A stretch of DNA of 50,048 bases from sequence record MH051918, one strand, 5' to 3'. Position 1 is the stretch's first letter. Every line of letters begins with the position of its first letter. Origin of the DNA: Escherichia phage vB_EcoS_IME347. The translations under genes were made by a program, and so were the position numbers. Under the pieces are notes generated by a model. The model was given only the letters and a program-made list of their open reading frames with translations, did not search any database and had not been told where the DNA came from. Below, in pieces: positions 1 to 48,876 of this stretch.

Positions 1-18
1 CCTACCGACTTTTCCGTT

Positions 19-36
19 TTTAGCAAAAAGTGCTAT
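19..36 (-). promoter_or_regulatory. box copy without a canonical -10 partner inside the window
   Basis: The plus strand reads TTTAGCAAAAAGTGCTAT, identical to copy 49862-49879. The expected -10 position would fall left of base 1. Confidence 0.4.
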
Positions 37-37
37 C

Positions 38-139
38 GTGACAAGATTACATTGACTCGCTGTATATCACTGTCTACAATTTCCCGGATTTGTCGGCGTG
101 ACAAAATTACACCTCGCGCCCCTGAGAGTGAGATTACAT
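38..139 (+). repeat. three direct GTGACAARATTACAY repeats
   Basis: GTGACAAGATTACAT at 38-52, GTGACAAAATTACAC at 98-112, GTGAGATTACAT at 128-139. Start-to-start spacings are 60 and 30 nt. Confidence 0.6.
52..80 (+). promoter_or_regulatory. sigma70-like promoter TTGACT-17-TACAAT
   Basis: TTGACT at 52-57, a 17-nt spacer, TACAAT at 75-80. Flanked by GTGACAARATTACAY repeats. About 365 nt upstream of the first ORF. Confidence 0.55.
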
Positions 140-450: not shown

Positions 451-972
451 ATGAGCAATACCAATCAGCAACCACAAATCACCGACATGATTCGCCTTGC
501 CTGTCAAAATCACTACGCCGCAGGTGAAGCCATGTTCAGCTTCGACGCGCAACAAATGGCCTTCCACACCGTCAAGAAGTATGCGGAGCAATCCGGGATG
601 GATATCACCGACGAGCAGATCGACGAGGAAGCCGCTCGTTGGGTGGGGCAGAATACCGAGAACATTGCGAAGCGGTTCAAGCCGTCATTTGCGCAGCCGA
701 TCATTAAGCGATTCTTTGCTCACATCGGAAAGGCCGTCGTGGTGAATACCGGGCGCAACGATGCCAACGAACCGATGATTACCGTGACCATTACGGACGA
801 GGAAGTCGTGAAGCCGCAGCGCAAGAGCCGGGCGAAGAAAAAGCAATCCATCGGGGACATTCTGGATTCGTTCGTCGTGGACGTGTCGAAGCTCGGGGAT
901 TCGGAGTTGATGGTTCGCGATGTGAATGAAATCGTTCGGCAAATGAAGGAGCACATCCTGAAAGGTGAATAG
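451..972 (+). CDS. hypothetical early protein, 173 aa
   Basis: Track ORF. AAGGAG lies 6 nt before the ATG. First gene right of control region A. Its stop TAG is the TAG of box 969-986. No domain recognised. Confidence 0.8.
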   Translation: MSNTNQQPQITDMIRLACQNHYAAGEAMFSFDAQQMAFHTVKKYAEQSGMDITDEQIDEEAARWVGQNTENIAKRFKPSFAQPIIKRFFAHIGKAVVVNTGRNDANEPMITVTITDEEVVKPQRKSRAKKKQSIGDILDSFVVDVSKLGDSELMVRDVNEIVRQMKEHILKGE

Positions 973-1012
973 CACGAATTGCTAAAACAGGCGGAAGGGA
1001 ATCCGCTATTAT
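969..1012 (+). promoter_or_regulatory. box/-10 promoter cassette
   Basis: Box ATAGCACGAATTGCTAAA (969-986). Inverted repeat GCGGA/TCCGC (991-1006). 22 nt after TTGCTA comes TATTAT (1007-1012). Confidence 0.6.
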
Positions 1013-1048
1013 ACATCCATCGAAACGAAACACGGAAAGGGCAGCGAA

Positions 1049-1234
1049 ATGAAAATCATCAAAGTGGGTTATGACATCGTTAACGGCAAAAACTTTGCAT
1101 ACGGCGAAAACTTCCAGTTTGAAATCACCGAAGCGGATCGCATTAATTGGAACTTCGACCTGCTCAACGGCTTTGATCTTGAAATCACTCGTGAAGATTT
1201 CGACGCGCTGACTTGCGAGAAATACGAATACTAA
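1049..1234 (+). CDS. hypothetical small early protein, 61 aa
   Basis: Track ORF. Preceded by cassette 969-1012 and an A/C-rich leader. Its TAA overlaps the first base of the next box. Confidence 0.75.
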   Translation: MKIIKVGYDIVNGKNFAYGENFQFEITEADRINWNFDLLNGFDLEITREDFDALTCEKYEY

Positions 1235-1277
1235 TAGCACGAATTGCTAAAGCCCGGTCAATCGGATCGGGTATAGT
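1234..1277 (+). promoter_or_regulatory. box/-10 promoter cassette
   Basis: Box ATAGCACGAATTGCTAAA. Inverted repeat CCCG..CGGG in the spacer. 22 nt spacing to TATAGT (1272-1277). Confidence 0.6.
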
Positions 1278-1307
1278 AACCACATCGACAACAAAGAGGG
1301 TAGAGAA

Positions 1308-1556
1308 ATGAAAAAGGTCACGGTTAAGCTGTTAAATCACGGCGGGTATGACGGATTAAAGGGCGTTGAATTCCCGCAGGTAGTGGAAGGATTCGAACAT
1401 CCGACGCTGGATTACATTGACGTTCCGTTTGAGGAGTTGGAGCGCATCGGGTACGACAAGGCGAAAGGTCGCTGCTGTGGAAACCTGCCGGACTGCGCTG
1501 AAGGTAGCCCGTGCCTGACATTCTTCAAGTTTAGCGAAGCGGAGGTGATCGCATGA
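1308..1556 (+). CDS. hypothetical small early protein, 82 aa
   Basis: Track ORF with a GAGGG RBS, preceded by cassette 1234-1277. Confidence 0.8.
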   Translation: MKKVTVKLLNHGGYDGLKGVEFPQVVEGFEHPTLDYIDVPFEELERIGYDKAKGRCCGNLPDCAEGSPCLTFFKFSEAEVIA

Positions 1557-1753
1557 AAAAGGTTCCAATGTTCATCGCTGGCGGCATCGCCAAATATTAC
1601 GCCGTAATTGGCAATAAATTCTATTACTGGAGCGAATTCCAAAAGTGCTGGTGTGGCTCAGTTAACGATCCGGGGCAAAATGAGCGACGCCTCGAAAGGG
1701 CGATCCGTGAGGGTAAAGTTTTCCTAGCCACCATCAAGGGGGAAATCCTATGA
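1553..1753 (+). CDS. hypothetical small early protein, 66 aa
   Basis: Track ORF. ATGA start/stop overlap with the upstream gene. Confidence 0.75.
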   Translation: MKKVPMFIAGGIAKYYAVIGNKFYYWSEFQKCWCGSVNDPGQNERRLERAIREGKVFLATIKGEIL

Positions 1754-1860
1754 ATCCACTCGCTTTCGGCACGGCGATTTTCTTTCTGGCGACGGGGCAT
1801 TTTTGGCTGTTCATCGTCACCATGATCTTAATTGGCGCGGGAGCCTTTGACGATGATTAA
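1750..1860 (+). CDS. micro-ORF, 36 aa single-helix membrane peptide
   Basis: Hand-translated, below the track cutoff: MNPLAFGTAIFFLATGHFWLFIVTMILIGAGAFDDD. AAGGGGGA RBS 6 nt upstream. ATGA overlap with the upstream stop, and its end overlaps the next start. Confidence 0.6.
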   Translation: MNPLAFGTAIFFLATGHFWLFIVTMILIGAGAFDDD

Positions 1861-2053
1861 GATGAAATGTGTGCGGTCAACCTACGCGCTGTTTTCGGCT
1901 GGTGAGGTTTACGACTTCAAACGGGCTGGTGAGGCCGGGCGCTTCACGGTGTACGAGTACGAGCGCGAGGGCGCACTGTATCGCTTCGGTCTTGATGATG
2001 CCGGAGCTAACGAAACTGACGGTAATTTTATGCAATTCGAAGAGGTGAAATAA
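1853..2053 (+). CDS. hypothetical small protein, 66 aa (KxKC...G-x-Y family)
   Basis: Track ORF 1832..2053 (TTG start) trimmed to ATG 1853 (MIKMKCVRST...). GGAG lies about 10 nt upstream. Confidence 0.65.
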   Translation: MIKMKCVRSTYALFSAGEVYDFKRAGEAGRFTVYEYEREGALYRFGLDDAGANETDGNFMQFEEVK

Positions 2054-2250
2054 TGTACATTTTAACTGCTGTTCTGGTTCTGGTGATTCTGGTTCTGTAT
2101 GTGTGCGGCTGCTTCCTCATGCGGGCTTTCCTGCGGACGAATGACACAACCGATCAGGATAAGTGGAAGCCTGTCCTTACGTGGCCTGTCATCATGATTG
2201 ATGTTATTTGGGATTGTGCAATCAAAAACCACAAGAAATTTGAGTGGTAA
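2053..2250 (+). CDS. small membrane protein, 65 aa
   Basis: Track ORF with TAATG overlap. N-terminal hydrophobic helix ILTAVLVLVILVLYVCGCFL. Confidence 0.75.
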   Translation: MYILTAVLVLVILVLYVCGCFLMRAFLRTNDTTDQDKWKPVLTWPVIMIDVIWDCAIKNHKKFEW

Positions 2251-2294
2251 ATAGCACGAATAGCTAAACATGCCGGGCGGCAATCCGGCATAAT
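2251..2294 (+). promoter_or_regulatory. box/-10 promoter cassette
   Basis: Box ATAGCACGAATAGCTAAA. Inverted repeat GCCGG/CCGGC. 22 nt spacing to CATAAT (2289-2294). Confidence 0.6.
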
Positions 2295-2326
2295 GCAACC
2301 ACACCAAACGAAACGAGGAAAACGAA

Positions 2327-2584
2327 ATGACTCTCAACGAAGTGATCGAAATCATCTGTGGCTATGGCCTCCGCGCAAAACGCGAACTGCTGACTTGCGG
2401 CGCAACGCACGTAGCGATTGACGATAACGGCTCAATCTTCGCCTACAAAGGCGAGCCGCGCAACGACGACCCGGACGGTCAAGAGTGGTTGCCGGGACAC
2501 GGAGAGGGTGATCGCACTGTGATGTACTGCGGCGTGACCGAATATCCGGGCAACTGGAAAAGCTGCGTCTGGAAACTCCCGTAA
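2327..2584 (+). CDS. hypothetical small early protein, 85 aa
   Basis: Track ORF. Cassette 2251-2294 upstream, with a GAGGAAAA RBS. Confidence 0.8.
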   Translation: MTLNEVIEIICGYGLRAKRELLTCGATHVAIDDNGSIFAYKGEPRNDDPDGQEWLPGHGEGDRTVMYCGVTEYPGNWKSCVWKLP

Positions 2585-2628
2585 ATAGCACTTTTTGTTA
2601 AAACTGAATCTCGGGGCTGCGATATAGT
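2585..2628 (+). promoter_or_regulatory. box/-10 promoter cassette
   Basis: Box ATAGCACTTTTTGTTAAA. Inverted repeat GGGCT/AGCCC with TATAGT (2623-2628) in the loop. 22 nt spacing. Confidence 0.6.
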
Positions 2629-2658
2629 AGCCCTACACCAAACGAAGAGGGTAACACA

Positions 2659-2961
2659 ATGAAATTAGCACGTAGCGCAGTATTCGCAGTCGGCACGCAG
2701 GGCAATAAAAGCACTGCATTCCTGTACATTAACAGCAAGGGTGAAATCTCCCCGTTCTGGCGTAGCGAGTATCATGCGGACGGATGGAGCAAGCACGGCG
2801 AGCTTGACCTGATTTGCGGACAAAAGCCTATCAATCACGATCACTGGTACGGCATCGAACTTGACGGGGTGGAACGTGACATTACCATGATTCAATCGCA
2901 CGTTACCCGCGCTGAAGGTGTGGACTTTAAGCGAGCGCTGAAGTTCATCGGAAAGCACTAA
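2659..2961 (+). CDS. hypothetical early protein, 100 aa
   Basis: Track ORF. Cassette 2585-2628 upstream. The last codons (AAG CAC TAA) form part of box 2952-2969. Confidence 0.8.
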   Translation: MKLARSAVFAVGTQGNKSTAFLYINSKGEISPFWRSEYHADGWSKHGELDLICGQKPINHDHWYGIELDGVERDITMIQSHVTRAEGVDFKRALKFIGKH

Positions 2962-2996
2962 TTGTTAAAAGGGGGATTCATCCTGACTGGTATAAT
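2952..2996 (+). promoter_or_regulatory. box/-10 promoter cassette
   Basis: Box AAAGCACTAATTGTTAAA. Inverted repeat GGGGATT/AATCCCC. 23 nt spacing to TGgTATAAT (hexamer 2991-2996). Confidence 0.6.
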
Positions 2997-3027
2997 CCCC
3001 ACATCAACCAAGCGAGAGGAAAGCAGA

Positions 3028-3492
3028 ATGTTACGCAAAGAAGATATCACCTACCCAATCAGCTTCGTTAGCTTCGGAGTTGGCACCTTTACATTCACCA
3101 ACGAGAAAGGCGGCCACATGGTGTGCGCCAATGGCTACGAGCAACGCGAAATCGAATGCAGGGTGGGGGAATTTATAGAAAAAGCGAACAAGCACAACCC
3201 GGACAACGATCCTAAGCGTGACTACAACTACACGATGCCGGGCGCGGCGGCTGAGGTTAAGTCTGGTGAGTGCAGGGCTGAGTATATGCCAATCGGATCA
3301 ACTCTAACGGGCGTCCGCATGGATGATGGAGATTGGGCTGAACTGAGAATCACTCCTCGCCGGATTGAGGTTGATTCCGAGGTGATTACCTTCCTGCTGC
3401 ATGCGCACTACAGCACCAACACCAAGCAGTCACGTTTTGCCGGGGAAGTGAGCATGAAGCGCGATGCGATTGTTCGTTGGGAGAAGGCATAA
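3028..3492 (+). CDS. hypothetical early protein, 154 aa
   Basis: Track ORF 2962..3492 trimmed to ATG 3028, because 2952-2996 is a promoter cassette. GAGAGGAAAG RBS. Confidence 0.75.
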   Translation: MLRKEDITYPISFVSFGVGTFTFTNEKGGHMVCANGYEQREIECRVGEFIEKANKHNPDNDPKRDYNYTMPGAAAEVKSGECRAEYMPIGSTLTGVRMDDGDWAELRITPRRIEVDSEVITFLLHAHYSTNTKQSRFAGEVSMKRDAIVRWEKA

Positions 3493-3644
3493 TGGCAACT
3501 TGGTACTTAATCGCGATCACCTATTACGCCGGGGTTCAGCCGATCCCGTTCGACTCGCACAAGGCTTGCATTGATGCGCGAGAGGTAATCAAGAGAAACA
3601 ACCCGACAACCGCAAGCTTGCAGGTTGTATGCGTTAAGAAATAG
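3492..3644 (+). CDS. hypothetical small protein, 50 aa
   Basis: Hand-translated, below the track cutoff (MATWYLIAITYYAGVQPIPFDSHKAC...VCVKK). TAATG overlap. Its stop is the TAG of box 3641-3658. Confidence 0.6.
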   Translation: MATWYLIAITYYAGVQPIPFDSHKACIDAREVIKRNNPTTASLQVVCVKK

Positions 3645-3684
3645 CACGAATTGCTAAACCTTCCGCAAGGCCATTTGATATAGT
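3641..3684 (+). promoter_or_regulatory. box/-10 promoter cassette
   Basis: Box ATAGCACGAATTGCTAAA. Inverted repeat GGCCA/TGGCC (3669-3688). 22 nt spacing to TGaTATAGT (hexamer 3679-3684). Confidence 0.65.
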
Positions 3685-3724
3685 GGCCTTATTGAAGCAG
3701 AGCAACCAATCAGAGGCAATGACC

Positions 3725-3937
3725 ATGAAATTTTATCAAACGAGCCGTAACGCTGTTCTGAAATACTGGATTGAAAACGGCGTTGTGATGTGCAGCGGAA
3801 TGGCGGGCGAGCCGTTTAAGTCAGCAATGACCGTCGAAGATGTGGAATGGGCTGTCAGTCGCGGAATGATGGTTCCGGTTCAGAGCAACCCGTTCGACTA
3901 CTGGAATAAACTGAAGTCAGGGGATCTGTTTAAGTGA
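3725..3937 (+). CDS. hypothetical small early protein, 70 aa
   Basis: Track ORF 3683..3937 trimmed, because 3683-3718 is cassette and leader. ATG 3725 lies 8 nt after AGAGG. ATG 3719 is an alternative start. Confidence 0.7.
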   Translation: MKFYQTSRNAVLKYWIENGVVMCSGMAGEPFKSAMTVEDVEWAVSRGMMVPVQSNPFDYWNKLKSGDLFK

Positions 3938-4167
3938 TTATCGTCAACACCGAAACGGGCGAGGTCATGGATAACTGCATCGTTATCGACGACAAGCCCA
4001 AGCCGAAGAGCAAGGCAGGAACTTACGTTAGGACGGTCTGCAAGGCTCCCGGATGCGGGAATATTTACGAGGCGAAAGCCTCAGACCTGAAGCGCGGTTG
4101 GGGATTGACCTGCTGTAAGTCATGCGCAGCCGTGGTTCGCGAACTTAAAAAGAAAGGGCGTTGGTAA
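3934..4167 (+). CDS. small Cys-rich (putative Zn-binding) protein, 77 aa
   Basis: Track ORF. The GTG start overlaps the upstream TGA (GTGA). The motif CKAPGCG...CCKSC suggests a zinc ribbon. Confidence 0.6.
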   Translation: MIIVNTETGEVMDNCIVIDDKPKPKSKAGTYVRTVCKAPGCGNIYEAKASDLKRGWGLTCCKSCAAVVRELKKKGRW

Positions 4168-4355
4168 TGGAGCGTTTAAGCTACTGGCAGATACTGGATA
4201 AGGCCGGGCGACTGCGCGAGCAGCTTCGCGGGCTACCGGATAATGACCGAATGGAAATAATCGGTCGGGCGTTGCTGGATCTGGTTCACGGCGACGTGAC
4301 CTATCACTCATGCGGCAACGCACAATGGAACCTGACCTTTGAGGTGAAGAAATGA
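4167..4355 (+). CDS. hypothetical small protein, 62 aa
   Basis: Track ORF 4161.. trimmed to ATG 4167 (TAATG overlap with the upstream stop). Confidence 0.7.
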   Translation: MERLSYWQILDKAGRLREQLRGLPDNDRMEIIGRALLDLVHGDVTYHSCGNAQWNLTFEVKK

Positions 4356-4654
4356 ACAACTTGCACGAACTGAAGATTTTCCCGCGCCACTTCTACGGCG
4401 TGAAGATGGGGCAGAAGAAAGCAGAATTCAGGGTTGACGATCGCGGATTCAAAACTGGCGACACGCTCCGCCTTCGCGAATGGCACGAGGGCGACTTTAC
4501 CGGGCGGGAAATCAGCGTTGTGGTGACTGACGTAACCGACGTGACCGAGTTCATCAATCGGGCGAACGCCGAACTGTACAACGGGAACCGCTTCGTAATG
4601 CTGTCGTTCTTCGTGGTTCACGCGAGCCTTTGCGATATCCCGTACATCCGATAG
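4352..4654 (+). CDS. ASCH/DUF3850-like protein, 100 aa
   Basis: HELKIFPRHFYGVKMGQKKAEFRVDDRGFKTGDTLRLREW matches my memory of the DUF3850/ASCH N-terminal pattern. ATGA overlap. Its stop is the TAG of box 4651-4668. Confidence 0.65.
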   Translation: MNNLHELKIFPRHFYGVKMGQKKAEFRVDDRGFKTGDTLRLREWHEGDFTGREISVVVTDVTDVTEFINRANAELYNGNRFVMLSFFVVHASLCDIPYIR

Positions 4655-4694
4655 CACGAATTGCTAAAACAATAATCCGGGGCTATGCCATAAT
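4651..4694 (+). promoter_or_regulatory. box/-10 promoter cassette
   Basis: Box ATAGCACGAATTGCTAAA. Inverted repeat GGGGCTAT/ATAGCCCC. 22 nt spacing to TGcCATAAT (hexamer 4689-4694). Confidence 0.65.
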
Positions 4695-4725
4695 AGCCCC
4701 ACACCAAACGAAAGAGGAAGTAGAT

Positions 4726-5106
4726 ATGAAATTCAAATGCACAACCGACACAACGAAGAAATTCACTCCGGGCAAAGTCTACGAGACTTCGGCGAGCAAC
4801 GCACTTCACAACGTGGCTATCCGTGACGACTCCGGGCGGACTCGCGTATTTCGTGTAACTCATAACGGCGAAGGTATTCGCTGGAATGTCGGCGGCAATA
4901 AGTCTGCGGTTATGAAAAAGCTTCATCCTACCTTCCGCATCGACGAGTTGGGTACTGTCCATATCAGCGACGGCGAAGTAACCCGAGTCAAGATCGGCGG
5001 TTGGTGCGAGACTGCGGAATCTAAGCGCGAACGAATCACGAAAATCGCTATCGCGGCAACTCTGGTGCTGGTGAGTGTGGCTGTATTCGTGGCGAATCAC
5101 TTCTGA
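4726..5106 (+). CDS. hypothetical protein with C-terminal TM helix, 126 aa (KxKC family N-terminus)
   Basis: Track ORF 4630.. trimmed to ATG 4726, downstream of cassette 4651-4694. AGAGGAAG RBS. C-terminal helix IAIAATLVLVSVAVFV. Confidence 0.75.
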   Translation: MKFKCTTDTTKKFTPGKVYETSASNALHNVAIRDDSGRTRVFRVTHNGEGIRWNVGGNKSAVMKKLHPTFRIDELGTVHISDGEVTRVKIGGWCETAESKRERITKIAIAATLVLVSVAVFVANHF

Positions 5107-5154
5107 TTTAAAAGGGGAATCTCTCTGAGCGGTTCCCCATAACAAGGAATTCAA

Positions 5155-5280
5155 ATGGTAGACGTGAATCACTGGAATGAACCGCCAAAGCATGACGTTC
5201 TGTTTTGGTTTCTCGGGTTGCTGATAACGCTCGTTATCATCTTGAAAGGCGTGATGGTGGCGGAATGGATTCTGACCTGA
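5155..5280 (+). CDS. micro-ORF, 41 aa single-helix membrane peptide
   Basis: Hand-translated: MVDVNHWNEPPKHDVLFWFLGLLITLVIILKGVMVAEWILT. AAGGA RBS 6 nt upstream. Confidence 0.55.
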   Translation: MVDVNHWNEPPKHDVLFWFLGLLITLVIILKGVMVAEWILT

Positions 5281-5474
5281 TTAACTACGAAGATGCAGCG
5301 CGTGACGCTATCGATGGTATGCTGCCAAATTCGAAGCGTGTGGCTCACTATCGCGGTTTTAAGGGTTCACCTGTTAAACTGTATTGCGAGATTTTGAAGC
5401 TCTCAGAAGTCGATACAGCGCGTTTAGAGGCATACGATTTTAAGCGTTTTTCGATAACCATCGAAACCAAATAG
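5265..5474 (+). CDS. hypothetical small protein, 69 aa
   Basis: Track ORF 5205.. trimmed to ATG 5265 (MDSDLINYED...). Overlaps the end of the micro-ORF by 16 nt. Its stop is the TAG of box 5471-5488. Confidence 0.6.
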   Translation: MDSDLINYEDAARDAIDGMLPNSKRVAHYRGFKGSPVKLYCEILKLSEVDTARLEAYDFKRFSITIETK

Positions 5475-5514
5475 CACGAATTGCTAAAAACCTATCAGGG
5501 GAATGCGCTATGAT
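5471..5514 (+). promoter_or_regulatory. box/-10 promoter cassette
   Basis: Box ATAGCACGAATTGCTAAA. Inverted repeat GGGGAAT/ATTCCCC. 22 nt spacing to TATGAT (5509-5514). Confidence 0.6.
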
Positions 5515-5544
5515 TCCCCTACACCAACAAGCGAGGACGACAAA

Positions 5545-5976
5545 ATGAAACATCTGGTATGCATTGTAGAAGGTTGCGGCCTGGAAGGAATCGGCGGTGA
5601 ACTCGGTCACTACATGATCGCGAAGAATGACCAAGACCGAAGCGGCGACGTTGAGATAACCTCCCGCCACGCACTCCCTTACATCATGGAGACTCTCGGT
5701 GATGGAATGTATCAGGGTTATGGCTCCAGCGCTATTTACAAGCAATACCCGATCCGCAAGCGTCTGGTTCGCGCATTCTTTAAGTACGCGCATCACGATT
5801 GCAAGCTTTCACGCAATGCGGCGAAAAGTTGGGCGCGAGCTATGGCTGACGGATATTTCTTCCGTGATGGTCAGGCGATCAGCGAAATGATTCAGACAAT
5901 CATGATCGACTATGACGGCGATTTCGGTCAAGAGTCATTCGATAGCTACGTTGCCGACGAGATCTCTTACTGGTAA
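5545..5976 (+). CDS. hypothetical early protein, 143 aa
   Basis: Track ORF 5503.. trimmed to ATG 5545, downstream of cassette 5471-5514. Confidence 0.75.
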   Translation: MKHLVCIVEGCGLEGIGGELGHYMIAKNDQDRSGDVEITSRHALPYIMETLGDGMYQGYGSSAIYKQYPIRKRLVRAFFKYAHHDCKLSRNAAKSWARAMADGYFFRDGQAISEMIQTIMIDYDGDFGQESFDSYVADEISYW

Positions 5977-6020
5977 ATAGCACGAATTGCTAAAACTTGC
6001 TCAGGGGCATTTGTTATAGT
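5977..6020 (+). promoter_or_regulatory. box/-10 promoter cassette
   Basis: Box ATAGCACGAATTGCTAAA. Inverted repeat GGGGCA/TGTCCC (one G.T position). 22 nt spacing to TGtTATAGT (hexamer 6015-6020). Confidence 0.65.
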
Positions 6021-6059
6021 GTCCCTCGTTGAGTTAAGCAACCAATAAAGGAAAAAGCG

Positions 6060-6590
6060 ATGATTATCAACGCATACGGTAAAGAGTTTCACACAAACGC
6101 GCCTTCCGGCCTTGTCTGTATTTTCGACTACGACGGGACGCTTTCGGACGGTTCGCACCGACTTCACCTCCTGCCGAAGAAGGATTTACACCTCACTGAA
6201 AGCTGGAGCGAATTCAACCTTGCATCGGTGGACGACGCCCCGATCGAATCAACTATCAAGGTAATGAATGCGATGTATGCAGCCGGGCATTGTGTCATTA
6301 TTTTGACCGGACGCAGCGATGAAGTTGAAGCGGAATCCCGAGTTTGGTTAGATCGTCACGGCGCGAAGTATGACTTCATGATCATGCGTCGCCACGACGA
6401 CAACCGCAAAGACACGGTTATCAAAGAGGAAGTTCTCCGCGAGATCGGGTTGGAGCGAATCCTCGCGGCTTGGGACGATAGCCCTTCAGTTATTCCACAC
6501 TTTAGGAATATTGGAATAACTACATATGCCGTAACTGACTACGGCGACAACGTTCACGATCACCTTAAATCACACGGAGTAGAAAAATAA
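6060..6590 (+). CDS. HAD-superfamily phosphatase (nucleotidase / polynucleotide 3'-phosphatase-like), 176 aa
   Basis: HAD motif I in VCIFDYDGTLSD. ILTGR and a C-terminal WDD are consistent with motifs II-IV. Cassette 5977-6020 upstream. Confidence 0.65.
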   Translation: MIINAYGKEFHTNAPSGLVCIFDYDGTLSDGSHRLHLLPKKDLHLTESWSEFNLASVDDAPIESTIKVMNAMYAAGHCVIILTGRSDEVEAESRVWLDRHGAKYDFMIMRRHDDNRKDTVIKEEVLREIGLERILAAWDDSPSVIPHFRNIGITTYAVTDYGDNVHDHLKSHGVEK

Positions 6591-7174
6591 TGAGCAAAGT
6601 AATCATTCTCAACGCGCCGCCAGCATGTGGCAAAGACACGATAGGTTCAATCATCGCGGATATGAATCAGATTTATGGCGTTCGCATGTTGAGCTTCAAA
6701 GCGCCGATGTTCGAGATCGCCCGAGCTATCCTCGGTGATGCGAACTTTGATTATTTCATGTTCCTTTATAACGATCGGCTCCATAAGGAAAAGCCCGATT
6801 CCATTCTGAACGGTAAAAGCCCGCGCGAGTTCATGATCTGGATTAGCGAGGCAATCATTAAGCCAGAATTCGGCAATGATTATTTCGGGCGTCGAATGGT
6901 TGAGGCTGTCAAGTCAGGCACTGCCCCGGCGATTATCACGGACGGCGGATTCACTGAAGAGACAATCGCACTAATTGAAGCTGGTATTCAGGTTCACGTC
7001 TGCCGACTGCACCGCGACGGATTCACGTTTGAAGGCGACTCGCGAAACTATCTTCACCTGCCTGTGGGCTGGCAAGGCGTAAACGGCTACACCGAAGAAG
7101 ATTTCCAGTTACGTGACGGTGATCCTGATTACACTGCCAGCGTGATTACCGGGAAATACCTGCGTCACTTCTAA
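6590..7174 (+). CDS. P-loop kinase, dNMP-kinase-like, 194 aa
   Basis: Walker A in NAPPACGKDT. The overall pattern (GKDT...ITDGGFTEE...RDGD) recalls T4 gp1-type dNMP kinases. TAATG coupling to the HAD gene. Confidence 0.6.
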   Translation: MSKVIILNAPPACGKDTIGSIIADMNQIYGVRMLSFKAPMFEIARAILGDANFDYFMFLYNDRLHKEKPDSILNGKSPREFMIWISEAIIKPEFGNDYFGRRMVEAVKSGTAPAIITDGGFTEETIALIEAGIQVHVCRLHRDGFTFEGDSRNYLHLPVGWQGVNGYTEEDFQLRDGDPDYTASVITGKYLRHF

Positions 7175-7217
7175 TAGCACGAATTGCTAAAAACTCGGCG
7201 GGGTAAGCTGTTATAGT
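7174..7217 (+). promoter_or_regulatory. box/-10 promoter cassette
   Basis: Box ATAGCACGAATTGCTAAA. Inverted repeat GGGGTAA/TTACCCC. 22 nt spacing to TGtTATAGT (hexamer 7212-7217). Confidence 0.65.
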
Positions 7218-7253
7218 TACCCCATCGAAAACAACCAATCAGAGGAAACGCGA

Positions 7254-7439
7254 ATGATGCAAGTCACCAGCTACACCCAATCGACAGCCGAAGCAATCAG
7301 CGAACTTCGAAAGGTTGCCGACGCGCTGGAGAAAGGCGAGGCTATGCTTTATAGCGGATCAGTTACCAACACCAAGCGTTACGGCGAAGCCCGTGAATAC
7401 GCTATCGAAATCACAGTAGTCACCGATAAGGAGATGTAA
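7254..7439 (+). CDS. hypothetical small early protein, 61 aa
   Basis: Track ORF. Cassette 7174-7217 upstream, with the AACCAATCAGAGG leader. Confidence 0.75.
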   Translation: MMQVTSYTQSTAEAISELRKVADALEKGEAMLYSGSVTNTKRYGEAREYAIEITVVTDKEM

Positions 7440-7441
7440 AA

Positions 7442-7645
7442 ATGAGCAACACAATCAAACTTCGCACGACTCACGCCGATTGCCCTTGGATTACTCCGGG
7501 CAAGATTTACGAGGCCGAATTGGTTGCGAAAGATGGATTTGACGGACTGTATCGGCTGAAGAATCCAGACTTCGGAGAGGTGCTCACTGCAATTGAGAAC
7601 TCCTGTCATTTGGGCGGGGAAAGTTGGGAAGTAGTCACCGAATAG
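7442..7645 (+). CDS. hypothetical small protein, 67 aa (KxKC family-like)
   Basis: Track ORF with an AAGGAG RBS. Contains IKLRTTHADCPWITPGKIYEAE. Its stop is the TAG of box 7642-7659. Confidence 0.75.
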   Translation: MSNTIKLRTTHADCPWITPGKIYEAELVAKDGFDGLYRLKNPDFGEVLTAIENSCHLGGESWEVVTE

Positions 7646-7685
7646 CACGAATTGCTAAAAGTTCCGCAAGGGCATTTGATAGAAT
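7642..7685 (+). promoter_or_regulatory. box/-10 promoter cassette
   Basis: Box ATAGCACGAATTGCTAAA. Inverted repeat GGGCA/TGCCC. 22 nt spacing to TGaTAGAAT (hexamer 7680-7685). Confidence 0.65.
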
Positions 7686-7718
7686 GCCCTTATTGAAACG
7701 AAGCAAAGGAAAATAGAA

Positions 7719-8408: not shown

Positions 8409-8409
8409 G

Positions 8410-9580: not shown

Positions 9581-9598
9581 ATAGCACGAAATGTTAAA
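9581..9598 (+). promoter_or_regulatory. box copy in the terS leader
   Basis: ATAGCACGAAATGTTAAA lies between TGaTAAAAT (9574-9582) and the GGAGGA RBS. No -10 lies 22 nt downstream. Confidence 0.45.
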
Positions 9599-9614
9599 CA
9601 TCGGAGGACGTTTT

Positions 9615-16092: not shown

Positions 16093-16120
16093 TTGACGCT
16101 TTAACAAAAAGTGCTATCAT
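16093..16120 (+). promoter_or_regulatory. sigma70-like promoter TTGACG-16-TGcTATCAT (capsid gene)
   Basis: TTGACG at 16093-16098 and TATCAT at 16115-16120. The predicted +1 (~16127) lies inside the 5' arm of terminator 16121-16148. Confidence 0.55.
16100..16117 (-). promoter_or_regulatory. inverted box copy forming the spacer and TGn of the capsid promoter
   Basis: The plus strand reads TTTAACAAAAAGTGCTAT, embedded in TTGACG-16-TATCAT. Confidence 0.5.
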
Positions 16121-19871: not shown

Positions 19872-19880
19872 CTGTAGAAT
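19872..19880 (+). promoter_or_regulatory. CTGTAGAAT -10-like nonamer after a terminator
   Basis: Lies 5 nt after the T-run of terminator 19844-19867. The motif recurs at 23924, 26057, 41647 and 37379 (minus strand). Confidence 0.4.
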
Positions 19881-19907
19881 CACTGTATCAAATCAATACG
19901 GCGCTGT

Positions 19908-19925
19908 TTTAACAAAAAGTGCTAT
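19908..19925 (-). promoter_or_regulatory. inverted box copy upstream of the tail chaperone gene
   Basis: The plus strand reads TTTAACAAAAAGTGCTAT followed by CAC, giving TGcTATCAC. Lies 24 nt before ATG 19949. Confidence 0.45.
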
Positions 19926-26079: not shown

Positions 26080-26097
26080 ATAGCACAAAAGGTTAAA
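26080..26097 (+). promoter_or_regulatory. box copy in the J-like gene leader
   Basis: ATAGCACAAAAGGTTAAA lies 14 nt after CTGTATAAT (26057-26065) and 4 nt before ATG 26102. Confidence 0.45.
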
Positions 26098-26101
26098 CAT
26101 C

Positions 26102-30053: not shown

Positions 30054-30084
30054 TGGTGTTTCCTCGTTTCGTTTTGATGAATGC

Positions 30085-30128
30085 AGTATAGCCCCGTTTC
30101 CGGGGCTTGTTTTAGCAATTCGTGCTGT
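30085..30128 (-). promoter_or_regulatory. box/-10 promoter cassette
   Basis: Read on the minus strand: ACAGCACGAATTGCTAAA. Inverted repeat GCCCCG/CGGGGC. 22 nt spacing to TATACT. Drives the secreted-protein gene. Confidence 0.6.
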
Positions 30129-32686: not shown

Positions 32687-32729
32687 ACAGCACAAATAGC
32701 TAAACATGTAATTCTCGGGGTGTTATAAT
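32687..32729 (+). promoter_or_regulatory. box/-10 promoter cassette
   Basis: Box ACAGCACAAATAGCTAAA. Inverted repeat GGGGTG/CACCCC with TGtTATAAT in the loop. 21 nt spacing. Sits upstream of erf. Confidence 0.6.
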
Positions 32730-32767
32730 GCACCCCGTAGACAAGAAACCAATCAGGAGATAACGAA

Positions 32768-35798: not shown

Positions 35799-35816
35799 AT
35801 AGCACTAATTGCTAAG
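35799..35816 (+). promoter_or_regulatory. box copy between two leftward genes, abutting the tail fibre RBS
   Basis: ATAGCACTAATTGCTAAG on the plus strand. Read leftward, it is CTTAGCAATTAGTGCTAT followed by TTACTTGGAGG and the ATG. Confidence 0.4.
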
Positions 35817-35879
35817 CACCGATTTTATCATTGTGGTATGCGCCCGGCAATAGGGCAATAAAAAACCCGCCGAAGCGGG

Positions 35880-36824: not shown

Positions 36825-36839
36825 TGAATTATCTCCAAT

Positions 36840-36873
36840 AAAAAACGCGTAACAGGAGTTTACCCGCTACGCG
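36840..36873 (-). terminator. terminator-like hairpin enclosing the primase -10
   Basis: Read on the minus strand: CGCGTA, a 16-nt loop, TACGCG, then T6 and ATTGGAG. Confidence 0.45.
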
Positions 36874-36900
36874 CTTTTGTGTTTTAGCTATTTGTGCTCT
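36857..36900 (-). promoter_or_regulatory. box/-10 promoter cassette (primase)
   Basis: Read on the minus strand: AGAGCACAAATAGCTAAA. 22 nt spacing to TAAACT. The hexamer lies in the loop of CGCGTA/TACGCG, which is followed by T6. Confidence 0.55.
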
Positions 36901-37340: not shown

Positions 37341-37383
37341 ATAGCACTTTTTGTTAAAACTAACTAATCGATGCGTGTATTAT
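37341..37383 (+). promoter_or_regulatory. box/-10 promoter cassette (helicase)
   Basis: Box ATAGCACTTTTTGTTAAA. 21 nt spacing to TATTAT (37378-37383). Inverted repeat GCGTG/CGCAC. Confidence 0.55.
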
Positions 37384-37387
37384 ACAG
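37379..37387 (-). promoter_or_regulatory. CTGTATAAT -10-like nonamer (leftward, HTH gene)
   Basis: Reverse complement of ATTATACAG. Overlaps the rightward TATTAT of the helicase cassette. Confidence 0.4.
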
Positions 37388-37420
37388 TCAACGCACGAGT
37401 AACGCAAAGGATTAAGAACA

Positions 37421-39472: not shown

Positions 39473-39894
39473 TTACAGATAAGGGCGATTATTTAGAGTT
39501 TTACGAGCGCGACCCGAGCGACACGAGAAAGGAGGTAGTTCACCAAATTGAGAGCACTTCCTTTTTGAAAGTTCGACACCCTGACTTGCTGTTTTGGCAT
39601 AGTGTCAACGAGAACGAGAAGAGCAAGGCGACCGCAATGATTGATCAGCAATCCGGCTTATTGAAGGGAGTTAGTGACTTCGTTTTCCTGATTGGTTTCA
39701 ATCACCGATACCCGTTCGCCGCAATCGAACTTAAGCGCGTGAATAAGTCCGGCAAAGGCAAGGCGTCACCCGTAAGCGATGAACAGAAAGCCTTCTTGCG
39801 GAAGGTCAGGGAGCGAGGCGGGTTCGCCGCAGTAGCCTACGGGGTGGAGCAGTTAAAACTCGCAGTAGCTGAAATGCTCAAACAGCACGAATAG
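39469..39894 (+). CDS. VRR-NUC domain nuclease, 141 aa
   Basis: GVSDFVFL...AAIELKR gives the G-x-(S/P)-D...E-x-K pattern of VRR-NUC. ATGA overlap with the helicase gene. Confidence 0.7.
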   Translation: MITDKGDYLEFYERDPSDTRKEVVHQIESTSFLKVRHPDLLFWHSVNENEKSKATAMIDQQSGLLKGVSDFVFLIGFNHRYPFAAIELKRVNKSGKGKASPVSDEQKAFLRKVRERGGFAAVAYGVEQLKLAVAEMLKQHE

Positions 39895-39925
39895 CTAAAA
39901 CAGCCGGAAAGGAATCCGGCATAAT
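39882..39925 (+). promoter_or_regulatory. box/-10 promoter cassette (dam)
   Basis: Box ACAGCACGAATAGCTAAA, which overlaps the VRR-NUC stop. Inverted repeat GCCGGA/TCCGGC. 22 nt spacing to CATAAT. Confidence 0.6.
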
Positions 39926-39954
39926 CACCACATCGAAACAACGGAGAGAAACAA

Positions 39955-40668: not shown

Positions 40669-40910
40669 TGAATGAGAAAACTGTTTGCCTGAATGAATTT
40701 GGTCAATGGATGCTGTTCCGTGGGCTGGCGTGTTATGCGCTGGAGCGTCACGGCTTGACGGAAAAGGAATTGGGTTGCTCCCTTTGGGAATTCACGGAGT
40801 CGCTTGATATGTCATTCGAGGAAATTCGAAGTCTTGATTTGGCTCAGTGGGCTACAAAAGTAATGGCGGACGCCGAAGAGCTTAGAAACGAGATCGTGAA
40901 AAAGCACTAA
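40668..40910 (+). CDS. hypothetical small protein, 80 aa
   Basis: Track ORF with TAATG overlap with dam. Its last codons (AAG CAC TAA) form box 40901-40918. Confidence 0.7.
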   Translation: MNEKTVCLNEFGQWMLFRGLACYALERHGLTEKELGCSLWEFTESLDMSFEEIRSLDLAQWATKVMADAEELRNEIVKKH

Positions 40911-40944
40911 TTGCTAAACGTACCCGGCGCAAGTCGGGTATTAT
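40901..40944 (+). promoter_or_regulatory. box/-10 promoter cassette
   Basis: Box AAAGCACTAATTGCTAAA. Inverted repeat CCCG/CGGG. 22 nt spacing to TATTAT (40939-40944). Confidence 0.6.
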
Positions 40945-40975
40945 TGTTTTATTGAAACGAAACGGAGAATCACAA

Positions 40976-41173: not shown

Positions 41174-41438
41174 AGAATCTGGAAGGCAAGCCGTTTGGAG
41201 TCACGCAAAAGAAACGGGGCTGGCGGACGGGATCGCACTAATTGCTAAATACTTCGATATAAAAGACGTTAGTATTATCGGCAACGGGAAGATAACCTTC
41301 ATCGAAGAGCTTCCCCGGAAGTGCCACCGAGTCCCGGCAACTCCCGGACTTGAGTTTTACCGGGAGGAGGGTAAGCGAATCATGCAAGAATTTAAGGCGA
41401 GCAAAAATGACAAGAGAACTTCCCGGCTTAAACGGTAA
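41166..41438 (+). CDS. hypothetical small protein, 90 aa
   Basis: Track ORF with a GTG start that overlaps the upstream end by 8 nt. Contains an internal box/-10 cassette at 41232-41275. Confidence 0.55.
   Translation: MIKESGRQAVWSHAKETGLADGIALIAKYFDIKDVSIIGNGKITFIEELPRKCHRVPATPGLEFYREEGKRIMQEFKASKNDKRTSRLKR
41232..41275 (+). promoter_or_regulatory. box/-10 cassette located inside an ORF
   Basis: Box ATCGCACTAATTGCTAAA, encoded as GIALIAKY. 22 nt spacing to TAGTAT (41270-41275). No obvious inverted repeat. Confidence 0.4.
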
Positions 41439-42877: not shown

Positions 42878-42922
42878 ATAGCACAAATAGCTAAAGACAA
42901 ATCAGGGGTAACGAGTTATAGT
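42878..42922 (+). promoter_or_regulatory. box/-10 promoter cassette
   Basis: Box ATAGCACAAATAGCTAAA. Inverted repeat GGGGTAA/TTACCCC (the same arms as the copy at 7201-7224). 23 nt spacing to TATAGT. Confidence 0.6.
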
Positions 42923-42951
42923 TACCCCACACAAACAAAGGAGATTTAGCA

Positions 42952-46566: not shown

Positions 46567-46594
46567 CGTTTTAACTCCTTATTGGACGGGGTAA

Positions 46595-46638
46595 ATTATA
46601 CCCCGCCCATACTACACGCTTTTAGCTATTTGTGCCAT
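46595..46638 (-). promoter_or_regulatory. box/-10 promoter cassette
   Basis: Read on the minus strand: ATGGCACAAATAGCTAAA. Inverted repeat GGGGTA/TACCCC with TATAAT across the loop. 22 nt spacing. Drives the DUF3987-like gene. Confidence 0.6.
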
Positions 46639-47058: not shown

Positions 47059-47096
47059 CGATTCATTCCTTCTGATTGGTTATCTTGAATAAGGCC

Positions 47097-47140
47097 ACTA
47101 TATCAAATGGCCTTACGGCAATATTAACAAATCGTGCTAT
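47097..47140 (-). promoter_or_regulatory. box/-10 promoter cassette
   Basis: Read on the minus strand: ATAGCACGATTTGTTAAT. GGCCAtttgatatagTGGCC is identical to the hairpin at 3669-3688. 22 nt spacing to TGaTATAGT. Confidence 0.65.
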
Positions 47141-47601: not shown

Positions 47602-47640
47602 CTTTATTTCCTTGTTTTGTCGTTTCGTTTCGATGGGGTG

Positions 47641-47684
47641 ATAATATCAAATCACCCCGAGGTTGTTTTAGCAATTCGTGCTAT
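47641..47684 (-). promoter_or_regulatory. box/-10 promoter cassette
   Basis: Read on the minus strand: ATAGCACGAATTGCTAAA. Inverted repeat GGGGTGA/TCACCCC. 22 nt spacing to TGaTATTAT. Confidence 0.65.
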
Positions 47685-48798: not shown

Positions 48799-48832
48799 TG
48801 CCTTAATCTCCGTGATTCGTTTCGATGGGGTA

Positions 48833-48876
48833 ATTATGCCAAACTACCCCGATCGCGTTTTAACAAAAAGTGCTAT
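48833..48876 (-). promoter_or_regulatory. box/-10 promoter cassette
   Basis: Read on the minus strand: ATAGCACTTTTTGTTAAA. Inverted repeat GGGGTA/TACCCC. 22 nt spacing to TGgCATAAT. Confidence 0.65.

Follow-up and report, generated by a model that had tools for sequence, protein, structure and literature searches.

The marbox, the site of the Escherichia coli activators MarA, SoxS and Rob, is defined as gcannwwntgnnaaa (PMC12052159). At the micF promoter the box is centred at -41.5 (PMC9638938), and the E. coli sequence reads ACAGCACTGAATGTCAAAAC, 18 bp, TAGAAT and a further 7 nt to the annotated 5′ end. In E. coli marRAB, GATTTAGCAAAACGTGGCAT is followed by 15 bp and TTGACT-17-TATTAT. MarA and SoxS are described as regulated by inducers, and Rob is reported to be largely sequestered and inactive without them (PMC9178005). 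Among phages, a 21-nt direct repeat of unknown function has been published for TLS, T1, Rtp and Rogue1 (PMC11447400). The original prediction had left open whether relatives of its box were already described; the repeat was, and no paper found in the literature searched ties it to the marbox. What is new here is the fit of this published repeat to the E. coli marbox.

The window, the whole stretch of 50,048 nt analysed from Escherichia phage vB_EcoS_IME347 (MH051918), is a near-complete genome of the T1-like type (Drexlerviridae). Eleven copies of a box, hairpin, -10 and leader cassette had been proposed between positions 969 and 7718, and all eleven were found in place, with the proposed spacing, at box starts 969, 1234, 2251, 2585, 2952, 3641, 4651, 5471, 5977, 7174 and 7642. 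Allowing up to two mismatches, ATAGCAC-N5-GYTAAA matches the window 31 times (1.78 expected). A composite of the box, 17–19 nt and G-N-YANNNT matches 24 times against 0.01 expected, on both genome arms, so the cassette is not limited to the left early region; about 26 units are spread across the two arms. The description of the remaining junctions as overlaps or very short gaps misses 5107–5154, a 48-nt gap with a hairpin and no box. As predicted, every one of the eleven boxes starts close to the upstream stop codon, which, by a tally from the sequence and ORF ends, is the box's own TAG in five copies, a TAA within the box in one, a codon overlapping box position 1 in two and one adjoining the box in three.

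The eleven left-arm cassettes all lie on the plus strand. Cassette 1 (969..1048; marbox 969–988) has a hairpin 5′ of its -10 hexamer, TATTAT at 1007–1012, a predicted +1 near 1019 and the leader CATCGAAACGAAAC before the ATG at 1049; cassette 2 (1234..1307; marbox 1234–1253) likewise places the hairpin 5′ of TATAGT (1272–1277), with +1 predicted near 1284 and ATG 1308. The marbox of cassette 3 (2251..2326) reads ATAGCACGAATAGCTAAACA at 2251–2270, followed by CATAAT (2289–2294), a predicted +1 near 2301 and ATG 2327. Cassette 4 (2585..2658) has a T-type (GTT) marbox at 2585–2604 and TATAGT (2623–2628) flanked by hairpin arms, with +1 predicted near 2635 and ATG 2659, while cassette 5 (2952..3027), whose marbox (2952–2971) begins AAAGCAC, has a 19-bp spacing to TGgTATAAT (hexamer 2991–2996), a predicted +1 near 3003 and ATG 3028. 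In cassette 6 (3641..3724; marbox 3641–3660) the hairpin flanks TGaTATAGT (3679–3684), and the leader AACCAATCAGAGG connects a predicted +1 near 3691 to ATG 3725. Cassette 7 (4651..4725; marbox 4651–4670) forms an 8-bp hairpin over TGcCATAAT (4689–4694; predicted +1 near 4701, ATG 4726). Hairpin arms also flank the hexamers of the last four: cassette 8 (5471..5544; marbox 5471–5490, TATGAT 5509–5514, predicted +1 near 5521, ATG 5545), cassette 9 (5977..6059; marbox 5977–5996, TGtTATAGT 6015–6020, predicted +1 near 6027, ATG 6060 of a polynucleotide kinase homolog), cassette 10 (7174..7253; marbox 7174–7193, TGtTATAGT 7212–7217, predicted +1 near 7224, ATG 7254) and cassette 11 (7642..7718; marbox 7642–7661, TGaTAGAAT 7680–7685, predicted +1 near 7692, ATG 7719).

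Further plus-strand cassettes occur at 32687..32767 (marbox 32687–32706, 17-bp spacing, TGtTATAAT, ATG 32768), at 37341..37420 upstream of a helicase homolog (17-bp spacing, TATTAT), at 39882..39954 (CATAAT, ATG 39955), at 40901..40975 (TATTAT, a hairpin and then a T-rich tail, ATG 40976) and at 42878..42951 (19-bp spacing, TATAGT, ATG 42952). The helicase-side cassette is divergent from a Cro-like HTH gene (36884–37327, minus strand). A box with TAGTAT at 18 bp within coding sequence (41232..41275, plus strand) is a possible internal promoter. On the minus strand, cassettes lie at 30054..30128 (marbox 30128–30109, TATACT 30090–30085, ATG 30053) and, upstream of a primase homolog, at 36825..36900, where TTTTTT follows the hairpin built around TAAACT, giving a probable true terminator that encloses the -10. 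The right arm adds six more on this strand: 46567..46638 (TATAAT, ATG 46566), 47059..47140 (TGaTATAGT, ATG 47058), 47602..47684 (TGaTATTAT, ATG 47601), 48799..48876 (TGgCATAAT, ATG 48798), 49438..49515 (CATACT, ATG 49437) and the outermost, 49795..49879 (TGgCATAAT, ATG 49794), which has no upstream gene.

The published marbox definition, gcannwwntgnnaaa, matches the window 23 times against 0.49 expected and T1 20 times against 0.67. Across 58 phage boxes, variation stays within marbox degeneracy: the GCA is invariant, positions 9–10 carry only A or T, R stands at position 13 and Y at positions 14–15. Position 19 counts against the match: the 20-mer consensus has Y there, and 66% of phage copies have A. 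The palindrome TAGCA-N5-TGCTA, previously named as the core of the box, is not what is conserved; the variation follows this asymmetric pattern of degeneracy. Judged by its letters and placement, the conserved box is a match to the MarA/SoxS/Rob marbox in both sequence and position, which makes it probable that early gene expression is turned on through these host activators, borrowed by the phage.

The promoter features are equally regular. A recount confirmed the distance from TTGCTA/TTGTTA to the start of the hexamer, 22 nt in ten of the eleven copies and 23 nt in one (2952); measured from the end of the 20-bp box, it is 18 or 19 bp. Among 25 modules in the window the spacing is 18 bp in 20, 17 bp in two and 19 bp in three. 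TGn precedes the hexamer in six of the eleven, and G at -14, present in all eleven, is nearly universal among the window modules. The predicted +1 is an A, the seventh nucleotide past the hexamer, in 22 of 25 modules, and the conserved leader starts there. Both A/C-rich leader motifs are over-represented, as had been claimed (ACCAATCAGRRG, 15 copies against 0.79 expected; CAYCGAAACGAA, seven against 0.94). With these features and their orientation towards the downstream gene, the cassettes look like promoters with inferred start sites; the literature searched yielded neither mapped 5′ ends nor data on binding or activation for any T1-like phage. The box spans about -50 to -31 with its centre near -41, which is the predicted class II activator geometry; the analogy once drawn with T4 MotA boxes does not fit this position.

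The near-consensus hexamers, the G at -14 and the TGn in about half the copies could also belong to factor-independent extended -10 promoters, in which the box would be an UP-like element, a displaced -35 surrogate or an element with no role in initiation. An UP-element reading was raised by the TLS authors (PMC11447400). This account is improbable: TTGCTA, 22 bp from the -10, is out of register by half a turn of the helix, an UP element would not look like the invariant GCAC at about -47 to -44, the constant 18-bp spacing indicates that box and -10 act jointly, and copies with CGG or GGG 5′ of CATAAT or CATACT are expected to be very weak alone.

The predicted GC-rich inverted repeat is real. 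Over 58 modules in three phages its mean MFE is -13.3 kcal/mol (mean z -3.5 against shuffles), the sense strand folds more stably than the antisense in 47 of the 58, and there are 72 G-U pairs: selection on the hairpin acts in the sense RNA. Two layouts, lumped together in the original prediction, are distinguished, one with the stem ending just 5′ of the -10 and one with the arms around it and the hexamer in the loop. Its position, 5′ of the -10 or surrounding it, means that read-through transcripts would fold the hairpin and cassette-initiated ones would not. Most hairpins lack a following U-tract. The G-U pairs and compensatory changes, together with the imperfect palindrome in the box, whose GCT-to-GTT variant would retain a G-U pair, might mean that box and hairpin function at the RNA level and not in DNA, as a processing, nut-like antitermination or stability element. 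As an account of the box this is very improbable, because A-type boxes (ACAGCACAAATAGCTAAA) disrupt the palindrome at two pairs, reversed copies fit DNA-level layouts, an Rfam search found no matching family and stems of 5–8 bp are, on general knowledge, too short for RNase III. The hairpin part of the idea is kept within the favoured, class II promoter reading.

Whether a host or a phage protein reads the box was addressed by phmmer, tblastn and a MarA+SoxS+Rob profile, which found no MarA/SoxS/Rob-like protein in the six-frame window, T1 or KP36, and by Pfam, which found no AraC-type domain among ten candidate ORFs; a phage protein that resembles MarA in structure could escape such sequence-based searches. 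A phage-encoded or virion-delivered factor, with the marbox likeness due to mimicry or convergence, would define a phage-specific promoter class. It would suit the far greater uniformity of phage boxes than of host marboxes, the many early ORFs without known function and the first gene, g1, which sits behind a good sigma70 promoter and an upstream reversed box in a manner resembling marA autoregulation. When the Keio single-gene collection was screened with LL5, a T1-like phage, the genes recovered were tolC, LPS-core genes, secB and ppiB and not rob, marA or soxS (PMC7229145), so no single one of these three is essential for plaque formation. That result agrees with a phage factor and would be accounted for by factor-independent promoters; redundancy or activator-independent activity of the TGn promoters could also produce it, but it weighs as a genuine caveat on the host-activator reading. 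Against a phage factor, besides the negative homology searches, the outermost genes on each arm lie behind cassettes, so the factor would have to be in the cell beforehand, and both host geometries, class I and class II, are matched to the base pair, which would be surprising for a protein that did not dock on RNA polymerase in the manner of MarA. A perfect host marbox in the micF class II position and orientation, and a reversed copy in the marRAB layout, make the phage-specific factor originally proposed unlikely, though it deserves some weight.

Full cassettes are conserved in Klebsiella phage KP36, which carries 16 of them at the same spacing, and none occurs in phiEt88, the control with unrelated regulation. 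Within 1–9500, blastn similarity to T1 and KP36 is almost confined to cassettes, and indels relative to T1 have cassettes at their borders; a four-gene block missing from T1 is bordered by cassette 6 on the left and cassette 7 on the right. Boxes also occur outside the cassette. A complete box, 18 bp and TGaTACAGT form a T1-conserved candidate promoter at 19875..19925 (minus strand), which runs antisense into late (tail) genes. A box without hairpin or -10 (9581..9600, plus strand) lies 14 nt 5′ of the terS ATG (9615), and one without a promoter (26080..26099, plus strand) 2 nt 5′ of the ATG of a J-like tail fibre gene, both conserved in T1. At 35799..35818 (plus strand), a box in reverse orientation to the side tail fibre gene (minus strand) adjoins that gene's ribosome-binding site and is conserved in T1 (34902). 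Upstream of the major capsid gene, the spacer and -10 of a sigma70-like promoter, TTGACG-16-TATCAT (16093..16120, plus strand), overlap a reversed marbox at 16098–16117.

Five promoter-less, T1-conserved boxes adjoin late-gene starts (terS, capsid, tail chaperone, J and side fibre), as would suit a box serving chiefly as a site for a repressor or roadblock, the "stoperator" proposed by the TLS authors (PMC11447400); the cassette-bordered indels would suit a recombination signal. Either in place of an activator site is quite improbable: this reading leaves the fixed 18-bp link to the -10, the conserved +1 and the leader in about 25 copies unexplained, and a recombination role is compatible with promoter function and secondary to it, as in T4 PeSLs.

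We judge it somewhat probable that the cassette combines a class II MarA/SoxS/Rob-type promoter with a stop/hairpin unit, a compact device that would close one message and open the next. In its promoter half, a near-consensus forward 20-bp marbox would stand in place of the -35 hexamer of a sigma70 promoter, and the extended -10-like hexamer, which has G at -14 and often TGn, would begin 18 bp past the box. A monomeric marbox-binding activator, touching alpha-CTD and sigma region 4, would recruit host RNA polymerase; the likeliest candidates are host Rob, whose abundance is constitutive, or, in stressed cells, MarA, SoxS or RamA. The reported inactivity of Rob in the absence of inducers, and the inducer control of MarA and SoxS (PMC9178005), weigh against this reading. 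Initiation at the conserved A would yield an unstructured A/C-rich 5′UTR of 22–35 nt leading to the Shine–Dalgarno sequence. The stop half would comprise the stop codon, often the box's TAG, and the GC-rich RNA hairpin through the spacer and -10. As only transcripts from upstream would hold both arms, the hairpin may mark, attenuate or stabilise the upstream 3′ end and leave the new message, which lacks the 5′ arm, unburdened.

The cassettes, with a forward 20-bp box ending 18 bp (17–19) 5′ of an extended -10-like hexamer, share the geometry of micF, which serves as the model for class II promoters of MarA/SoxS/Rob. At the left genome end (17..88, plus strand), a reversed marbox (17–36), a 15-bp gap and a good -35/-10 pair (TTGACT 52–57, 17-bp spacer, TACAAT 75–80) reproduce the E. 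coli marRAB layout and would form a class I-type promoter; window 17–80 and T1 101–164 alike read reversed box, 15 bp and TTGAYT-17-TAYRAT. As nearly the sole conserved DNA in T1-like early regions, the 75–95-nt units may serve as homology patches for gene-cassette exchange, and, like the PeSL elements of T4, they border gene insertions and replacements, here relative to T1.

The conserved 20-bp box that opens each intergenic cassette coincides in sequence with the marbox, to which MarA, SoxS and Rob, activators of the AraC family in E. coli, bind. All eleven boxes originally located between 969 and 7718 were confirmed as placed, and the pattern ATAGCAC-N5-GYTAAA, allowing up to two mismatches, has 31 occurrences in the window, where 1.78 would be expected. 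The 20-mer AYnGCACnnWnnRYYAAAYn, reportedly the marbox consensus of Martin et al. from 1999, is matched 28 times with at most one mismatch (0.83 expected). In a genome-wide study, the marbox was given as the 15-mer 5′-gcannwwntgnnaaa-3′ (PMC12052159); perfect matches to it number 23 in the window (0.49 expected) and 20 in phage T1 (0.67 expected). Across 58 cassette boxes from three phages (the present one, T1 and Klebsiella phage KP36), every copy has GCA, positions 9-10 hold A or T exclusively, a purine stands at position 13 and pyrimidines at positions 14-15, with position 19 as the sole departure from marbox degeneracy. The palindromic core emphasised in the original prediction is not the conserved feature, as box variation tracks the asymmetric degeneracy of the marbox. 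A palindrome serving as a dimer site or an RNA hairpin was considered and rejected, since conservation is asymmetric and the A-type boxes break the pairing.

In the cassettes, the box stands at a fixed distance from a -10-like hexamer. As first described, the hexamer begins 22 nt after TTGCTA/TTGTTA in ten of the eleven cassettes and 23 nt after it in the other, and the estimate that about half are extended also holds, with TGn before the hexamer in 6/11 and G at -14 in 11/11. The box is forward in all 25 cassettes compared, and is separated from the hexamer by 18 bp in 20 of them, 17 bp in two and 19 bp in three. An A occupies the seventh nucleotide after the hexamer in 22 of the 25 window cassettes, and the conserved leader starts exactly there. 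The distance from box start to ATG is 72-85 nt, giving a predicted 5′ UTR of 22-35 nt. The composite pattern (box, 17-19 nt, G-N-YANNNT) has 24 matches in the window, where 0.01 would be expected. At the upstream end of the eleven cassettes, the stop codon is the box's own TAG in five, lies inside or overlaps the box in three and adjoins it in three. The cassette is not restricted to 969-7718; it is genome-wide, present in both arms and also before replication and recombination genes. The remaining early junctions had been described as overlaps or very short gaps; an exception is 5107-5154, the only longer early-gene junction without a box, which carries a hairpin (GGGGAA...TTCCCC). At the equivalent site, the T1 annotation places a rho-independent terminator.

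Class II marboxes are forward and lie over the -35, with centres between -36 and -55, and class I marboxes are reversed and further upstream (PMC12052159). The class II box of micF is centred at -41.5 (PMC9638938), and in the E. coli genome this promoter reads ACAGCACTGAATGTCAAAAC, 18 bp, TAGAAT and 7 nt to the annotated micF 5′ end. The phage cassettes share with micF the forward orientation, the 18-bp distance to the -10 and, counted from a predicted +1, a centre near -41, placing them within the class II arrangement (forward, centre about -41.5, 18-19 bp to the -10). The 22-nt 'spacer' is thus exactly class II marbox spacing, as it results from a 20-bp box followed by 18 bp. Rob bound at a class II box contacts the alpha-CTD and sigma region 4, and moves region 4 off the -35 (PMC9178005). 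Class II mar/sox/rob promoters and the phage cassettes both lack a usable -35, and none was found at 16-18 bp in the cassettes. The proposed promoter reading and class II geometry are borne out, and the cassettes very probably function as promoters. Two other promoter types were considered and set aside. Relative to a sigma54 promoter (GG-N10-GC at -24/-12), TAGCAC-N3-TTGC is 2 bp shorter than TGGCAC-N5-TTGC. A sigma32 -10 was considered for CCCCAT in the 3′ arm of the hairpin, but no suitably spaced -35 is present and the C-run is taken up in pairing with the G-run.

The left genome end reproduces the other host layout. A reversed box at 17-36 precedes, with a gap of 15 bp, the plus-strand promoter TTGACT-17-TACAAT, which is the best of sigma70 type in the first 10 kb; the box therefore has the class I form, reversed and 5′ of a recognisable -35 with a 15-bp gap. 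The T1 equivalent has a reversed box, 15 bp and TTGATT-17-TATGAT within different flanking sequence. The E. coli marRAB promoter reads GATTTAGCAAAACGTGGCAT, 15 bp and TTGACT-17-TATTAT, and fpr likewise has a reversed box with a 15-bp gap (PMC9638938), so that both host promoters share orientation and gap to the -35 with the left-end box. Together, the micF-type and marRAB-type matches indicate that two independent, orientation-dependent host layouts are reproduced. The same end carries, at 37-135, two direct repeats GTGACAA(G/A)ATTACA plus GAGATTACA, followed by an AT-rich stretch at 120-330 with TGTACAC palindromes; the equivalent region of T1, at 121-215 and 395-425, contains CGATTACGATTACG, AAATTACGCC twice and CGATTAACA three times. 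These repeats and palindromes may serve in packaging or bind other proteins.

Both window ends resemble the T1 genome ends, and the 50,048 bases are thus essentially a complete T1-like genome in T1 orientation, with early genes directed inward from both ends and structural genes at about 9.6-29.7 kb. A megablast of 400-8400 against phage records matched only T1-like siphoviruses (Drexlerviridae of Escherichia, Klebsiella, Shigella, Salmonella and Citrobacter), with coverage of at most 16%. T1 has the same cassettes, which carry no promoter annotation. Whether relatives had been described in this way was a question left by the original prediction, and the repeat itself has indeed been published. 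A 2024 re-annotation of phage TLS reported 21 copies of a 21-nt direct repeat, aaATAGCACnnnTTGnTAAAA, oriented with transcription about 76 nt 5′ of start codons and also present in T1, Rtp and Rogue1 (PMC11447400). In sequence, orientation and distance to the ATG, this repeat is the same element as the window box. The TLS authors identified only three sigma70-like promoters and offered a stoperator, an enhancer site or an UP element as options for the repeat, which they did not link to the marbox, a -10 at fixed distance or a hairpin (PMC11447400). A literature search found no link of T1-like phages to the marbox, Rob, MarA or SoxS, and no transcription-start mapping for any T1-like phage. The element is therefore already known; what appears to be new is its identification as a marbox, together with its geometry, the logic of the hairpin and the behaviour of the cassette.

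Between the box end and about +8, a stretch of 40 nt, the 58 cassettes of the three phages have a mean folding energy of -13.3 kcal/mol and a mean z-score of -3.5 relative to shuffled sequences. In 47 of the 58, the sense strand is the more stable of the two owing to 72 G-U pairs, and compensatory changes occur among related cassettes, such as AAGGCC/GGCCTT in the window versus AACGTC/GGCGTT in KP36; the sense RNA is therefore what selection acts on. In 11 cassettes the stem stops just short of the -10, in 33 it flanks the -10, and the remaining 14 are intermediate. As the 5′ arm lies 5′ of +1 in every layout, the hairpin would be formed only by read-through transcripts from the upstream gene. 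Few of the cassette hairpins have the direct U-tract of an intrinsic terminator, and none was called in a terminator scan of the plus strand from 1 to 10200; a T-rich tail follows the hairpin only at the cassettes 36900(-) and 40901. We infer that the hairpin is an attenuator or a 3′-end stabiliser. Antisense-strand terminators are less likely given the sense-strand bias, and several hairpins were flagged as minus-strand terminators because the complement of the box A-tract supplies Ts. Stems of 5-8 bp with loops of 6-10 nt do not fit RNase III sites or N4-type hairpin promoters. No Rfam family was matched in the window.

When 1-9500 was compared by blastn with T1 and KP36, almost all similarity fell within the 50-100-nt cassettes, often between non-orthologous copies. 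Four genes at 3725-4654, lying between homologues of T1 Orf69 and Orf68, are absent from T1 and are flanked by cassettes 3641 and 4651. By protein synteny, the single genes at 1049-1234, 2327-2584 and 2659-2961 also have no T1 homologue and are each cassette-flanked, and the same is true of the gene pair at 7254-7645, with cassettes on both sides. Within the four-gene block, 4352-4654 encodes a DUF3850/ASCH-like protein (Pfam E 2.5e-15). This arrangement recalls the PeSLs of T4-like phages, in which an early promoter is joined to a stem-loop of G-run and C-run that lies over the -10 or in the spacer between it and the -35; PeSLs run from stop codon to ATG and mediate modular shuffling (PMC2839356). 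Judged against that description, the cassettes likewise combine an early promoter and a nested stem-loop from stop codon to ATG, and they bound indels and replacements. They have neither the consensus sigma70 -35 nor the T4-like myovirus setting, the genome being T1-like. The cassette of T1-like phages thus works like a PeSL outside the PeSL family.

The phage-specific factor that the original prediction had proposed to act at the box finds no support. Searches by phmmer and tblastn for a MarA/SoxS/Rob-like protein in six frames of the window, T1 and KP36 gave only E > 0.4, and a three-sequence MarA/SoxS/Rob profile reached a best E of 0.09 in the same set (positive control 1e-62), which speaks against a phage-encoded protein of this type. 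Among the ten largest unassigned early or regulatory ORFs, Pfam found no AraC-type domain and only one Cro-like HTH, at 36884-37327(-), and the product of g1, the first left-arm early gene, gave a confident structural model with no informative fold match. Cassettes precede the outermost genes of both arms, so the factor should pre-exist in the cell. Rob is constitutive and abundant, but is switched by a sequestration-dispersal mechanism whose ligands include bile salts (PMC9178005). The spacing recurs in 16 full cassettes of KP36, which infects a host with this regulator family. Erwinia phage phiEt88 belongs to the same terminase lineage but is regulated in the lambdoid manner; it contains no cassette and a single 15-mer match, attributable to chance, and serves as a negative control only. 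Both it and Aeromonas phage Avpd1 had been chosen via TerL as distant T1-like genomes, but their organisation is not T1-like. In an IMG/VR scan for the box, among the matches listed, multi-copy matches were contigs of about 46-53 kb and single matches look like chance.

A Keio screen with the T1-like phage LL5 bears on host dependence from the other side, as it recovered tolC, LPS-core genes, secB and ppiB, and not rob, marA or soxS (PMC7229145). No single one of these activators is therefore essential for plaque formation, which keeps rival explanations alive. The negative result may be explained by redundancy or by basal activity of TGn-type promoters. The most likely reading is activation by host MarA/SoxS/Rob-type proteins from consensus marboxes in a PeSL-like stop/hairpin/promoter cassette, and dependence of the cassette promoters on host activators is favoured, with appreciable room for doubt.

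Five further boxes lie at late-gene starts, and all five are conserved in T1. Boxes with neither hairpin nor -10 adjoin the RBS of terS (9581-9600, plus strand), of the J-like tail fibre gene (26080-26099, plus strand) and of the minus-strand side tail fibre gene (35799-35818, reversed relative to the gene), each in the same place in T1; they may act as roadblocks or in repression. Upstream of the major capsid gene, at 16093-16120 on the plus strand, TTGACG-16-TATCAT with TGn is the best sigma70-like promoter in the late region, and its spacer and half of its -10 consist of a reversed box at 16098-16117. Its predicted +1 falls inside the 5′ arm of a terminator hairpin at 16121-16149, so its own transcript would escape the terminator. 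The layout is the same in T1, and KP36 keeps the promoter with a degenerate box. In E. coli pbpG, a marbox over the promoter spacer leads to repression by MarA, SoxS and Rob (PMC12052159). At 19875-19925 on the minus strand, a complete class II promoter (box, 18 bp, TGaTACAGT) is directed antisense, across the bidirectional terminator at 19844-19861, into the major tail protein gene at its 3′ end, and is conserved in T1 (18850-); it may produce antisense RNA. Taken together, the five late-gene boxes suggest that the same factor may restrain late genes.

Elsewhere, the Cro-like HTH gene at 36884-37327(-) is divergent from the helicase cassette 37341, and its promoter must therefore overlap that marbox promoter; cassette 36900(-) starts within the 3′ end of the same gene. 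The leader/RBS motif ACCAATCAGRRG has 15 matches against 0.79 expected, with minus-strand copies at 13419-13430, 25054-25065, 38009-38020, 39685-39696 and 41495-41506, in plus-strand gene regions by rough gene calls.

It is conceivable, though unlikely, that a single family of host activators governs the entire temporal programme of T1-like phages. Some 25 early and middle promoters with consensus marboxes would be switched on by Rob, MarA or SoxS, or in Klebsiella by RamA, and the same protein, on promoter-less or reversed boxes, would hold late genes down. The repressive boxes would be those in the capsid promoter spacer and -10 and at the RBS of terS, the tail chaperone, J and side fibre genes, and one box would drive the antisense promoter. 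Replication would multiply the boxes until a limited activator pool was titrated, producing the switch to late expression. The phage would also sense gut conditions or stress in its host, since bile salts and fatty acids activate Rob, and stress activates MarA and SoxS.

The transcription signals of T1, a classical phage, have never been defined. The marbox reading offers a concrete mechanism, inexpensive to test, that would cover nearly all early and middle promoters in a large phage family, the Drexlerviridae infecting Escherichia, Klebsiella, Shigella and Salmonella. If true, a virulent phage would depend on MarA, SoxS, Rob and RamA, which regulate multidrug resistance and stress responses in the host, or would sense through them, and about 25 high-affinity sites per genome copy could titrate them. 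In phage therapy, mar/ram up-mutations, bile or oxidative stress might alter phage gene expression. The cassettes are also on offer as compact activator-dependent promoter parts, and they extend the idea of a promoter/stem-loop 'mobile regulatory cassette' from T4-like myoviruses to an unrelated siphovirus family.

Three known systems can be set beside the cassettes. T4 MotA/AsiA middle promoters likewise belong to a virulent phage and have an activator box in place of the sigma70 -35. The proposed likeness to the MotA box itself does not hold: the MotA box, TGCTTtA, is centred near -30 and lies 11-13 bp from the -10, whereas the TGCT of the phage box is 24 bp from the hexamer and the box spans -50 to -31. 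T4 itself encodes its factors; the searches of the present phage gave none, and its box matches the site of a host factor. PeSLs and cassettes both flank small ORFans and delimit indels between related phages (PMC2839356, PMC4122927), and mini-circle formation and terminator activity are demonstrated features of PeSLs (PMC2839356, PMC4122927). The promoter of a PeSL follows the sigma70 consensus, with a genuine -35 preceded by AT-rich DNA; in the cassettes the marbox replaces the -35, and the two are unrelated in phage family and sequence. Mar/sox/rob promoters have the same asymmetric 20-bp site as the phage box, with GCAC and YTAAA elements and A/T-rich bases between them. Unlike the host regulon, the phage concentrates about 25 near-consensus marboxes in a 50-kb virulent genome as its main early and middle promoter type, in units that also contain an extended -10, a conserved leader and an RNA hairpin nested within them.
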